From a virus (Duplodnaviria; Caudoviricetes), in the IMG/VR virus record IMGVR_UViG_3300046786_000034, positions 1 to 37,145 of that record: a stretch of DNA of 37,145 nucleotides; one strand, written 5' to 3'. The notes below the pieces were generated by a model that had not been told where the DNA came from, searched no databases, and worked only from the letters and a program-made list of their open reading frames with translations. A program made the translations under genes and the position numbers. Positions 1-37,144 of the stretch are shown here, one piece after another (the stretch's first letter is position 1; each line of letters starts with the position of its first letter).

Positions 1-127
1 CAGTGCCGCAGCCGCACGGCCTTTAGTGACTCCAGGGTTGCCCTCCGTGAACTGGTCATTGTCTGCACCGATCACGATCTTTGAGCCTGGGAACATTTCT
101 TTGGCACTCTTGGCCACCTTGGCCAAG
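1..127. repeat. Terminal direct repeat, copy 1 (circular assembly overlap)
   Basis: Bases 1-127 are identical to 37019-37145 and fall inside a continuous ORF. Confidence 0.97.
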
Positions 128-849
128 TTGCCACAGTCAAACGCCACCAGCACGGTGTACCCCGTTGCCTCATGGATTGATGCGCAAGTGGCAAACCCCT
201 CACCAATAAACACGATCTTGCGATTGCCCCTCAACTCGTAAAATCCACCCTCAATCTTGCCGCCTTTGAGAAACCTTTTGTTGCCGTCTGCATCAATGGT
301 TTGGTACGACAGGATTTCACCAGCTTGGTTGATCACTGGCACAACCAGCCTACCTGCGCGATCAATCTTGATGCCATTGGCGCCAACATGCTTGCGCACA
401 AGGTAAGGATGGTCGTCACTTGCATCTGCATAAGTGCCAACTTCATCCTCTGCACGCTCGGCAGCCACCGCCTGACTAGCCAAACGGTCAGCATCTTTCT
501 TAGCCTTGACCTCTGCCACCCACTTGTCATGCTCAAAGCGCTCAGTAAACGACATCGCACGGCCAGTATCTGCCACCCACTTGCTCTCAAACACTGGCTC
601 TTTCCAACACCCTGCAATGCCTACAGGAACCTTGCCACTGGTGTGCAAGATGTACCAACCATCCAATGCACCCTTCTTGGATGACACATGCGCCACACGG
701 TGAATCTCACCGTCAGCAATGATCTGGTCTTTGATCAGCAGGCCAGCCGCCTCACAATGTCGGCGAAACCCTTCCTCTGGGTTGATCAGGTCTTGGCTTT
801 CTGTTGCAGCAGCGAAGCCATTGGGAAAAATAGAAGTAAGGTTAGTCAT
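1..849 (-). CDS. Primase-helicase, N-terminal Toprim primase part (continues across the junction into 35819..37144)
   Basis: Absent from the ORF track; hand translation from ATG 849 gives MTNLTSIFPNG...HPYLVRKHV...LVVPVINQAGEILSYQTIDADGNKRFLKGG...IGEGFATCASIHEATG...AFDCGNL...IGADND, matching TraC/P4-alpha-type Toprim motifs. In frame with 35819..37144; about 682 aa in total. Confidence 0.9.
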   Translation of the reverse strand, partial: MTNLTSIFPNGFAAATESQDLINPEEGFRRHCEAAGLLIKDQIIADGEIHRVAHVSSKKGALDGWYILHTSGKVPVGIAGCWKEPVFESKWVADTGRAMSFTERFEHDKWVAEVKAKKDADRLASQAVAAERAEDEVGTYADASDDHPYLVRKHVGANGIKIDRAGRLVVPVINQAGEILSYQTIDADGNKRFLKGGKIEGGFYELRGNRKIVFIGEGFATCASIHEATGYTVLVAFDCGNLAKVAKSAKEMFPGSKIVIGADNDQFTEGNPGVTKGRAAAAL

Positions 850-1666
850 TAAATTCTTTCACTGAGTAATTTCCATGCTGTTGCTGCACAAAGTGGGACT
901 TGTCCATTTCCAATGGCTTTAAGTCTGTCCACTCTAGCGGCCACCCCATCAGCCACTCTACCCATGTTGGGTTCAAAATCCCACCAGTCTTGTTCTTGTC
1001 TATTAAAACAACTGTTCCAAGACCTGGTGATTGTCTCTTGAACTCCGATGGACTCCCCTTCTCGTTTGAATTGTGACAAGTTGGAGTAGGAAACTTCTCT
1101 TGTCTTTTCTTTAATGCTTTTCTGCTGTTGCTTCCACCGTCTAATCCTGTTGTGTTGGGTGTATGAAAGCTGTCCACGCCATTTGGCGACAATCCAGATT
1201 CTGTCCCTCTGATGGTTTGCTCCAATGTCCGCTGCTCCCAACACTCCCCATTTCGCATCAAACCCCATTGAGGCCAAGTCTCCGAGAACTCTTCCAAGTC
1301 CCCTAGAAGTGAGCATTGGTGAGTTTTCCACGAACACGAACTTGGGTCGTACTTCGTGAATGATCCTCGCCATTTCTCCCCACATTCCTGATCGCTCTCC
1401 TTCAATCCCTGCTCCTTTTCCTGCGGCTGAGATGTCTTGGCACGGAAATCCTCCAGATACGACATCAACAATTCCTTGCCACGGCTTTCCGTCAAAGGTT
1501 TGAATGTCATCCCAAATCGGGAAAGGCGGGAGAACTCCGTCATTTTGTCTGGCGACAAGTACGCAAGCTGCGTAGGGTTCCCATTCGACTGCGCAAACTG
1601 TACGCCATCCAAGCAAATGGCTTCCGAGAATTCCTCCACCAGCGCCTGCGAATAAAGCCAACTCAT
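842..1666 (-). CDS. Overlapping alternative-frame MTase chain (beta-like) carrying motif IX and TRD-like segments
   Basis: 274-aa ORF overlapping the MTase end to end. Contains GILNPTWVEWLMGWPLEWTD (motif IX-like) and FHTPNT/FPTPTC segments; its ATG directly follows the cro stop. Confidence 0.8.
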   Translation of the reverse strand: MSWLYSQALVEEFSEAICLDGVQFAQSNGNPTQLAYLSPDKMTEFSRLSRFGMTFKPLTESRGKELLMSYLEDFRAKTSQPQEKEQGLKESDQECGEKWRGSFTKYDPSSCSWKTHQCSLLGDLEEFSETWPQWGLMRNGECWEQRTLEQTIRGTESGLSPNGVDSFHTPNTTGLDGGSNSRKALKKRQEKFPTPTCHNSNEKGSPSEFKRQSPGLGTVVLIDKNKTGGILNPTWVEWLMGWPLEWTDLKPLEMDKSHFVQQQHGNYSVKEFND

Positions 1667-1670
1667 TCAC
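849..1670 (-). CDS. C5 cytosine DNA methyltransferase, catalytic (alpha-like) chain lacking motif IX
   Basis: GTG start at 1670. Motif I LFAGAGG, IV GGFPCQDIS, VI FVENS, VIII HQRDRIWIVA, X RLKAIGNGQVP. Confidence 0.92.
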   Translation of the reverse strand: MNELALFAGAGGGILGSHLLGWRTVCAVEWEPYAACVLVARQNDGVLPPFPIWDDIQTFDGKPWQGIVDVVSGGFPCQDISAAGKGAGIEGERSGMWGEMARIIHEVRPKFVFVENSPMLTSRGLGRVLGDLASMGFDAKWGVLGAADIGANHQRDRIWIVAKWRGQLSYTQHNRIRRWKQQQKSIKEKTREVSYSNLSQFKREGESIGVQETITRSWNSCFNRQEQDWWDFEPNMGRVADGVAARVDRLKAIGNGQVPLCAATAWKLLSERI

Positions 1671-1882
1671 GCCTGCCCCACCAACTCTGGCCAAATAGAC
1701 TGCCAGCTGCCCTGGCACACCATCTGGCGAGTCACCCGCCCCTCGGTCTGCTGCTCAACCCTCACGGCCTCCCATGCTGACATCTCACGCCTGCCGGTCA
1801 GGCACTGGTAGAGATATTGCTCGTTAATGCCAACTTTTTCTGCCAGTTGTCGGCGCTCATCTGGTGTTATTTGTGTGTTCAT
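1667..1882 (-). CDS. Cro/YdaS-like HTH regulator
   Basis: RRQLAEKVGINEQYLYQCLTGRR helix-turn-helix and VEQQTEGRVTRQMVC..W..IWPEL tail typical of Cro/YdaS proteins; first gene of the leftward operon. Confidence 0.85.
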   Translation of the reverse strand: MNTQITPDERRQLAEKVGINEQYLYQCLTGRREMSAWEAVRVEQQTEGRVTRQMVCQGSWQSIWPELVGQA

Positions 1883-35572: not shown

Positions 35573-35861
35573 GTACCGAACCCTTTATGTACCGAAACCG
35601 AAAGGGTTTGTATACCCTTTCGGTACGTTTCGGTACACCAGAGGTGGGTTGCTTCGGTACATTTCGGTACGTTTCGGTACATTTCGGTACACGGTTCGGT
35701 ACATTTGGCATGTACCGATGTACCGAACTCGGTACATTTCGGTACAGTTCGGTACTTTTTGAATGTAACCAAGTTACCATTTCGGTACAGTTCGGTACAA
35801 GTGCTTGGTAACTTTGTTTCATGTCACTTGATTTGGCTCTGTTTTCGGCACAGTTCGGTAC
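35573..35861. repeat. Iteron array, putative phage replication origin
   Basis: 13 TCGGTAC copies on + and 4 on -, many at 10-bp spacing, immediately downstream of the primase-helicase gene. Confidence 0.8.
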
Positions 35862-37144
35862 ATGCCCGCATTCTCAAAAACCATGGATTTTTTGGTTAGT
35901 GCATCCAAACATTCCTTAAATCTGCGTGAATTCAGACCATGCCCTTTGGCGCTTTCACGCCATTCATCATAATCAACCATGGCCGCAAACCCTTCAATTC
36001 CATCTGCCGCCCGTTTGGCTTCAATAGACACCAAAGAATTTAATGCGATCTTTTGATTACCCGATAACACAGCACGCTTCTGGATATTCCCCATCAGGCC
36101 GCTGATGTCCACAGCCGTCAGATATGCCCCCTTGACTGGCAGCCCATGCTTGTCTTGGATGGGCAGATCCACTTGGGTGATCTGGAAGTTCTTTGGCGCT
36201 GGCATCTCTGCGTCTTTCATCTTTTTGGACTCAAACGCAATAGTCTTTGTGCCTGCATCCAACTGGCATCGGTATTCAGCATCCAGTGCGCCCTTGAGAG
36301 CCGTGCTACCCCTAGACCGATCCTTGTCTGCCACGCCTGAGTGGTGAACCACCAGCACGCAGCACTTCCATGGTTGGCGTAAATAGACATCGAGGTGCTG
36401 AATAAACGCATTCATGTCTTGGGTGCTGTTCTCATCCCCACCATGGTTTCTGGCCAAGGTGTCAATGATGATCATGGATGGCACTGTGCCTGCTTGCGCT
36501 GACAGCTCTTTGATGCTCTCTGCCACCACCGCAGCCTCTGTGGCGTCATACAGCTGCGCCGCACGGTGGCTCTTGTACAGTGGCGCCCCATCAAGGGTCT
36601 GGCCATTGCCTAGCTGCCATGCCTTGAACCGTCTGGCCAAGCCGTTGTGCCCTTCGCCTGCGATGTAAAACACCGAGCCTTGCTTGACCTCATGGCCATG
36701 CCATGGCCGTCCAGTAGCCACGCAGCAAGCAAGGTCGATGCTGACGAATGACTTACCACCGCCTGGGTCACCAAACACTTGCGCCAAGCTGTCACTTTCT
36801 ATGTAGTCGTCAACAATCCAATTGATCTCTGCCAACTCAAGGCTATCAATTCTGGAGAACTCAAACGCCAGTTTGTCACGCATCGGGCCTGCCACGCGCT
36901 CGATCTGCTCTTTGACGGCATCAAGCCCTTGCAGGCAGTGAAGGTCATTAAAGTCCGTTGGTTTGTTGTCCACCATGTCCGACTCACCAAATTGTGGGTA
37001 CACAATCTCACCAAACACCAGTGCCGCAGCCGCACGGCCTTTAGTGACTCCAGGGTTGCCCTCCGTGAACTGGTCATTGTCTGCACCGATCACGATCTTT
37101 GAGCCTGGGAACATTTCTTTGGCACTCTTGGCCACCTTGGCCAA
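35819..37144 (-). CDS. Primase-helicase, C-terminal part (Toprim end plus AAA_25/RepA-like helicase)
   Basis: TDFNDLH, Walker A GDPGGGKS, YIAGEG, Walker B IIIDTLAR, DENS..DM, VVHHSG, RGSTALKGALD. Confidence 0.9.
   Translation of the reverse strand: MAKVAKSAKEMFPGSKIVIGADNDQFTEGNPGVTKGRAAAALVFGEIVYPQFGESDMVDNKPTDFNDLHCLQGLDAVKEQIERVAGPMRDKLAFEFSRIDSLELAEINWIVDDYIESDSLAQVFGDPGGGKSFVSIDLACCVATGRPWHGHEVKQGSVFYIAGEGHNGLARRFKAWQLGNGQTLDGAPLYKSHRAAQLYDATEAAVVAESIKELSAQAGTVPSMIIIDTLARNHGGDENSTQDMNAFIQHLDVYLRQPWKCCVLVVHHSGVADKDRSRGSTALKGALDAEYRCQLDAGTKTIAFESKKMKDAEMPAPKNFQITQVDLPIQDKHGLPVKGAYLTAVDISGLMGNIQKRAVLSGNQKIALNSLVSIEAKRAADGIEGFAAMVDYDEWRESAKGHGLNSRRFKECLDALTKKSMVFENAGMYRTVPKTEPNQVT

Follow-up and report, generated by a model that had tools for sequence, protein, structure and literature searches.

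What does a phage methylase gene encode when a second frame on the same strand is open from one end of it to the other? The question is raised by a two-frame methylase locus in a freshwater phage, on the minus strand of a record of 37 kb with overlapping termini, the whole of which (37,145 nucleotides, hereafter the window) was analysed. Our preferred reading, to which we give a probability of about 85% from sequence comparison, is that both frames are kept open by selection and that they likely encode the two chains, alpha and beta, of an orphan C5 methyltransferase of the M.EcoHK31I lineage with a role in anti-restriction. The locus is laid out as follows.

1667 to 1882, minus strand: cro-like repressor gene, the upstream neighbour, with its TGA within GTGAATG
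1676 to 1682, minus strand: Shine-Dalgarno-like GGTGGGG of presumed function, picked out by eye, lying 5 nt upstream of the GTG of alpha and 9 nt upstream of the ATG of beta
849 to 1670, minus strand: alpha chain, from GTG at 1670 to TAA at 849, 273 aa, which holds motifs I-VIII of C5 methyltransferases and then, past a linker of low conservation, the pre-X segment and motif X
842 to 1666, minus strand: beta chain, from ATG at 1666 to TAA at 842, 274 aa, in the +1 frame, with its ATG four bases past the alpha start
1 to 849, minus strand: 5' part of the primase (Toprim) gene, the downstream neighbour, with the remainder at the other end of the record (35819-37144)

The two stop-free frames of 273 and 274 aa described in an earlier note on this DNA were confirmed, beta being the +1 frame of alpha on the minus strand, and the junctions are as that note had claimed, with the starts on the cro stop and the stops at the primase ATG. 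The two frames overlap end to end on the same strand over a stretch of about 830 bases. The alpha start, the TGA of cro (1669-1667) and the start of beta all fall within GTGAATG (1670-1664), and at the other end the alpha stop overlaps the primase ATG and the beta stop lies 7 nt further on. Synonymous recoding of the alpha of the window introduced 10.2 stops into the +1 frame on average, and 0 of 200 recodings remained open. The other frames over alpha contain 17 stops (+2) and 7-11 stops (the three reverse frames). Contigs of run X3, from another study, read the cassette intact and without gaps (overlapping pieces span it, most are identical and none is gapped), and the second frame is therefore not an assembly slip. 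RNA runs contained at most 0.17 of the words of the region.

Both frames are open and conserved under selection in the relatives. The viral sample consisted of 160 loci, the best 80 by alpha and the best 80 by beta, and after four cut loci and L140 were left out and duplicates were merged it held 117 distinct cassettes including that of the window. All 74 distinct relatives found by alpha alone have no +1 stop from codon 2 to motif X. Under synonymous recoding 10.9 stops per gene, or 805 in total, are expected in these 74 genes; none of 14,800 recodings was open in +1, and the +2 frame averages 18 stops. All 117 distinct cassettes start beta with an ATG at +4. As ranking by best hit is biased towards intact genes, a second sample was drawn by the DNA pattern of the first codons of alpha (its first 32 bases), which gave 120 loci, 47 of them too short and 73 scored. 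The wiring of the window was recognised in 62 of the 73 by HMM and in L312 by eye, and the remaining cassettes comprise one that is split differently, three shifted at G runs, two shifted elsewhere, three truncated and one with an alpha stop. Openness of the second frame in homologues was the check proposed in the earlier note, and the frequent stops that would have spoken against it were not found, either among the relatives found by alpha (0/74) or beneath an intact alpha in the pattern sample (0/73). Among bacterial-genome loci found by beta, 70 of 80 have the wiring of the window, and in 7 of these 80 prophage loci an alpha stop lies under an open beta. In L414 and L424 (alpha codon 166) and in L399 (codon 193) the alpha stop falls between motifs VIII and X while beta is open; an identical TAA is found in the two diverged copies L414 and L424, and TAA-ATG in the third. 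These three loci are candidate pseudogenes or a candidate three-chain form.

The alpha chain carries motifs I, IV (Pro-Cys), VI, VIII and X of C5 methyltransferases in order.

1635 to 1652, minus strand: FAGAGG, which we take to be motif I, the SAM-binding motif, aligned with LFAGLGG of M.HhaI
1434 to 1451, minus strand: motif IV (GFPCQD) with the catalytic Cys77, aligned with GFPCQ of M.HhaI; P76 and C77 are invariant in 68 sequences
1320 to 1328, minus strand: motif VI (ENS), placed by the M.HhaI alignment and family conservation
1194 to 1211, minus strand: motif VIII (QRDRIW), placed by the M.HhaI alignment and family conservation
894 to 929, minus strand: motif X (DRLKAIGNGQVP), aligned with NRFRAVGNAV of an EcoHK31I-type alpha

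A target-recognition domain (TRD) and motif IX between VIII and X in one chain are missing from alpha, and the elements assigned to them lie in beta. The Pfam DNA_methylase profile matches only alpha residues 4-197 (E 1.5e-34) and ends at profile position 196 of 324, the M.HhaI match covers residues 4-167, and alpha belongs to PHROG 363. The AlphaFold2 model of alpha as a single chain is poor (pLDDT 50.0, pTM 0.47). A search for longer fused forms returned 65 proteins, including intein-bearing or read-through alphas; inteins lie in motif IV (GFPC...CQD) of P0125, P0127 and further proteins from this search. The beta IX motif was absent from all six of the longer proteins examined; the search had a floor of 558 residues, above the usual size of single-chain enzymes. 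No viral locus was found when a distant alpha and an intein alpha served as scan queries.

The beta chain can be divided into segments as follows.

1367 to 1666, minus strand: beta 1-100, a stop-free N-terminal extension over alpha motifs I-IV, with the substitution phases of a one-frame control, absent or shorter in distant members
1184 to 1285, minus strand: beta 128-161, a predicted alpha-binding arm constrained in both frames, predicted from the match to an EcoHK31I-type beta and from deletion data described in PMC2836561
977 to 1168, minus strand: variable region with two xPTP modules in beta (the predicted TRD), where alpha is a passive linker
938 to 976, minus strand: motif IX-like segment LNPTWVEWLMGWP of beta, overprinted on the alpha pre-X segment and profile-aligned to MLPSEYERLQGFP of an EcoHK31I-type beta

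Beta matches PHROG 1008 'DNA methyltransferase' (E 2e-23). Searches of Pfam, PDB, NCBIfam and the Atlas returned nothing usable for beta, with no match in Pfam or PDB, and its AlphaFold2 single-chain model is also poor (pLDDT 55.5, pTM 0.24). The xPTP modules are about 37 aa long and occur in 0-4 copies per cassette, and in 225 cassettes all of them are in beta and none in alpha. The earlier note had assigned the IX-like and xPTP segments to beta, an assignment borne out by the profile alignment and by these counts. The position and variability of the modules suggest that they form the TRD. Alpha four-fold sites over the IX-like segment are 0.87 identical, against 0.25 for comparison.

The frame that carries the load differs along the gene. 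Substitution phases were counted in 19 independent close pairs, with a one-frame helicase as control, in which the +1 residue was kept in 8% of substitutions. In the variable region 197 substitutions fell at the beta wobble position and 41 at that of alpha, and the beta residue was kept in 66% and the alpha residue in 5%. The corresponding values were 61% and 33% in the IX-X region, 25% and 53% from alpha 101 to motif VIII, and 8-11% and 70-78% over alpha 2-100. Compared with the control, alpha 2-100 is no different (p 1.0 and 0.16) whereas the other regions differ (p 1.5e-4 to 3e-77). Substitution phases and xPTP counts together therefore indicate that alpha is a linker in the variable region, and that beta is the constrained frame there and at motif IX. 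Over beta 100-160 both frames are constrained.

The relation to M.EcoHK31I was examined through a primer-matched gene, L479 in NZ_CP023383.1, found with a published M.EcoHK31I primer from the supplement of PMC2836561. A gene of this type is present in 81 of 5,426 E. coli genomes, one of which was opened. In L479 alpha is 309 aa long, and a beta of 176 aa is nested in its +1 frame from alpha codon 104; both begin as the primers in the M.EcoHK31I paper do, and L479 adjoins a NotI-family endonuclease gene. According to PMC2836561, M.EcoHK31I needs both chains, and N-terminal deletions of 41-50 aa in beta raise the Kd and cut activity. Beta 128-161 of the window is 38% identical to L479 beta 34-67 (hhalign E 0.0066), which corresponds to the stretch cut in these deletions. 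The family beta profile scores L479 beta at 25.9 bits, above all 200 synonymous-recoding nulls (maximum 13.8), and places LNPTWVEWLMGWP on motif IX MLPSEYERLQGFP of L479 beta; a short profile of IX only gives it 1.3 bits, a score that 3 of the 200 nulls reach as well. The likeness to M.EcoHK31I noticed earlier is thus upheld by homology of both chains to this gene.

The N-terminal part of beta, about 150 aa, had been described as having no obvious function. It is in fact not of one kind: residues 1-100 show no excess constraint in close pairs, whereas residues 128-161 match the binding stretch of M.EcoHK31I beta as given in PMC2836561. Beta 1-100 is likely to be mostly a stop-free leader, for which some role is possible. 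Its mean four-fold identity is 0.38-0.51 and that of the helicase control is 0.47 at 70-80% protein identity, so that by this measure it is indistinguishable from a one-frame gene, the control being closer kin than the methylase set. In eight distant genes the last upstream +1 stop lies at alpha codon 13-93, and beta 1-100 is partly or wholly missing. A heterodimer in which beta 1-100 is a working extra domain, such as a binding surface or a regulator, instead of a leader is unlikely but deserves weight. The sequence MSWLFSQAL at the start of beta recurs in freshwater, enterobacterial, Vibrio and Ralstonia phages, and in 34 cassettes less than 75% identical beta 1-24 is 50% identical against 29% in the null, with F/Y5, L9 and a few other sites held. 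This conservation at the 5' end may be explained by shared ancestry or by a start-site signal, and both the substitution phases of the close pairs and the loss of the segment in the eight distant members argue against a working domain.

In the two-chain enzyme that we prefer, alpha likely provides the domain for SAM binding and catalysis (motifs I-VIII as well as X), while beta likely provides the alpha-binding arm, the target-recognition modules and motif IX. Both chains would be translated from two starts, probably with one ribosome-binding site, and beta 1-100 would mainly carry ribosomes through the +1 frame. Alpha and beta would bind each other, with the xPTP modules reading DNA, and the assembled enzyme, expressed in the cro-primase operon, would methylate phage DNA against host restriction. 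The placement of the TRD in beta is a prediction with no tested precedent, as the papers put the TRD of M.EcoHK31I in alpha (PMC2836561, PMC3404938). GGWCC and several palindromes of six bases are missing from the genome, a pattern that fits restriction pressure. Over positions 1-37145, GGACC and GGTCC are absent (about 20 expected each), AACGTT, ATGCAT, CGGCCG, AAGCTT and ACGCGT are also absent, and ACGT, CGCG, AGCT and CCGG are depleted; word counts over the same positions yield no target site. An adjacent cognate endonuclease gene, as in a Type II restriction-modification system, was not found, the neighbours being cro and primase.

The same DNA could instead be read as one chain through two programmed frameshifts or slippage events, with alpha I-VIII followed by a +1 shift for the TRD and IX, a return for X, and the front of beta left untranslated. 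The order I-VIII, TRD, IX, X in the DNA does match a single-chain enzyme, constraint on beta 1-100 is weak, and some relatives have slippery G/C runs just past motif VIII. Such a double shift is nevertheless very improbable, given the ATG at +4 with no stop from there on in all 117 cassettes and the cassette of the window, which is without a run of 5 or more. Moreover, beta 100-160, which precedes the first shift point, is still under constraint (p 1.5e-4) and matches EcoHK31I beta. Splits like that of M.AquI, with I-VIII on one chain and beta, IX and X on the other, are found in L140, L281 and Arthrobacter phage Andrew gp43/44, and indicate that IX and X belong to one enzyme. In Andrew gp44, IX stands 20 residues before X on one chain, whereas in the window the GN of X follows IX after only 26 nt, which makes a double shift unlikely. 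It is highly improbable that alpha is a complete or low-specificity enzyme and beta an unrelated overprinted protein. Beta does lack a curated family, but alpha is without IX and shows no constraint in its variable region, the beta of the EcoHK31I-type gene, a required chain, is a homologue of the beta of the window, and beta is fused to motif X in L140, L281 and Andrew gp44. A chance shadow of the alpha codons or an assembly artefact can be dismissed, being refuted by the pattern sample and the substitution phases, by the 14,800 recodings of which none was open, and by the intact cassette in the independent run X3.

The earlier note had also proposed that a 1:1 stoichiometry is set by double translational coupling, and this we could not support. 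A kin set of 28 records was taken by helicase and not by methylase, and 22 of them match cro. In 14 of the 22 the junction is empty and the cro stop overlaps the primase ATG directly (ATGA); in the other 8 the cassette stands at the cro-primase junction. The overlapping starts and stops are therefore attributable to the position of the cassette within a pre-existing ATGA junction. Upstream neighbours form 36 clusters, with a window-like cro in 3 of 113; among the 117 cassettes, 39 have the end of the upstream frame at +4 and 27 have it at +8. In 25 of the 117 the alpha start lies 3-9 codons before the aligned codon. Judging from these varied neighbours and alpha starts, upstream coupling is common but not required. 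The 3' overlap with primase presumably cannot set the alpha:beta ratio, and one shared ribosome-binding site, 5 nt before one start and 9 nt before the other, could equally well yield similar amounts. Double coupling is thus largely incidental.

In close kin the cassette is optional at the cro-primase junction and its variable region differs among them. Compared with the window, seven kin cassettes are 75-85% identical in the core and 71-100% in the last 35 nt, and only 22-44% of the variable region is shared. In L267 and L268 a distant cro-like gene (36-37% identity) stands upstream and the primase is 96-98% identical, which indicates that the upstream gene has been exchanged too. Divergent promoter-like sites lie at 1916-1988 between cro and the rightward early genes, one of which matches at 11 of 12 positions (plus strand, 1961-1988); no large repressor ORF adjoins these sites.

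The cassette of the window (842-1670) has no run of 5 or more, and thus lacks the simple repeat of a contingency locus, but such a repeat is present in 14 of 73 relatives. Six of eight kin cassettes, two of which look like one allele, depart from the register at C or G runs 9-15 long. In the pattern sample, runs of at least 8 G/C number 14 in 61 kb of cassette DNA against none in 157 kb of flank; in bacterial-genome loci they are not enriched (2 in 66 kb against 5 in 403 kb). The runs recur at cassette nt 46, 249-254, 493-503, 598-602 and 868, and their lengths differ between alleles 87-94% identical. Assembled lengths, which come from assemblies in which long runs are error-prone, are G11, G13, G14, G14 and G15 at one site, and C9 and C11 in alleles that are 94% identical. 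Runs of 8-15 at recurrent sites and in all three registers were seen in L247, L250, L252, L261, L262, L267, L271, L274, L278, L346, L282 and L421. Run-bearing cassettes make up 30 of 186, and 16 changes are needed on a quick tree of the core, so that several independent gains of runs are likely, recombination aside. The run-bearing relatives are candidates for phase variation. Contingency loci of phages T2/T4 and poly-G in a Bordetella phage methylase gene are described in PMC12633550. These share with the relatives long G/C runs, which here stand in and out of register. They differ in that one slip here would shift two proteins, and in that the cassette of the window has no run.

Taken together, the cro-primase junction may be an exchangeable epigenetic slot, either empty or filled by two-frame alleles whose specificity modules on beta are swapped between conserved ends, many of them with independently gained G/C runs that flip both chains. 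The result would be a bet-hedged and re-targetable anti-restriction methylome, in which a slip after VIII may re-wire the parts (I-VIII, TRD and IX on one chain) rather than switch the enzyme off. We put this forward tentatively, as a possibility with slightly less than an even chance.

If the two-chain reading is correct, then for a large class of C5 methylases in phages and prophages the annotated gene is only half of the enzyme. Beta-like proteins number at least 7,974 (90% clusters), an estimated 2,800 or so viral stretches have this 5' end, and in all seven phage records inspected one of the two frames is missing from the gene list. Predictions of specificity would then need the frame left out by annotation pipelines, and a gene of this kind recoded for expression would no longer yield the enzyme. 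The family also offers a natural data set, thousands deep, on the upkeep of an 800-base same-strand overlap, with the load on one frame, the other or both, segment by segment.

Several known systems can be compared with this locus. The two-subunit methyltransferase of an Stx prophage, as presented in PMC10810198, is an MT-A70 enzyme with a separate partner gene and is unrelated, and Che9d gp77, considered as a beta, is an amino-methyltransferase instead. Out-of-frame HNH insertions are described in methylases of phages ShiLan and Pacc40 (PMC11855218). An HNH-like ORF (CxxC, HH-D, CxxCH, by eye) likewise lies in the third frame just after IX in L140 (2497-3730) and L274 (cassette nt 875-1255), and in L140 it leaves alpha as I-VIII and joins X to beta. 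The window has no insert, and PMC11855218, as far as it was available to us, does not describe the alpha/beta two-frame enzyme. M.AquI, which we compare by its description in PMC3404938, has I-VIII together with a portion of the variable region on chain 1, and the rest with IX-X on chain 2. It shares with the window the separation of catalytic core and recognition part, but has both IX and X on the second chain, whereas the window keeps X on alpha.

Also among the closest known systems is M.EcoHK31I of E. coli HK31 (YGGCCR; Lee, Kam and Shaw 1995, here after the accounts in PMC2836561 and PMC3404938), in which alpha holds I-VIII, X and the TRD, and beta, in another frame, holds IX. As there, the second chain of the window is encoded in another frame, +1, of the alpha gene; alpha carries I-VIII and X and beta carries IX. 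Both chains are homologous and in the same phase, beta beyond the shadow of alpha. Beta begins at alpha codon 104 in the EcoHK31I-type gene, whereas that of the window starts 4 nt past the alpha start and is about as long as alpha. A TRD on alpha, where these papers place that of M.EcoHK31I, was not found, the constrained variable region being in beta. The EcoHK31I-type gene adjoins a restriction endonuclease, and the window holds a mobile phage cassette without one. An EcoHK31I-like layout with a later beta start was found in N15 gp58, Golestan, Rhynn, Che9d, S-H1, R9.1 and an archaeal plasmid. In L471 (N15 gp58), L474 and L476, which form a subfamily with a motif-I-like FAGIG after a YNE segment in alpha, an open +1 beta has WxTP modules and IX. 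Listings and abstract openings of open-licence papers gave no description of a phage family with this layout. Since two laboratory phages share the layout (N15 gp58 and mycobacteriophage Che9d gp80), a direct test is possible. The principle is already known from M.EcoHK31I, from which the present locus differs in the full-length overlap, the frame of the variable region and the mobile orphan cassette; new here are the homology test to an EcoHK31I-type beta, the segment map and the empty or filled junction.
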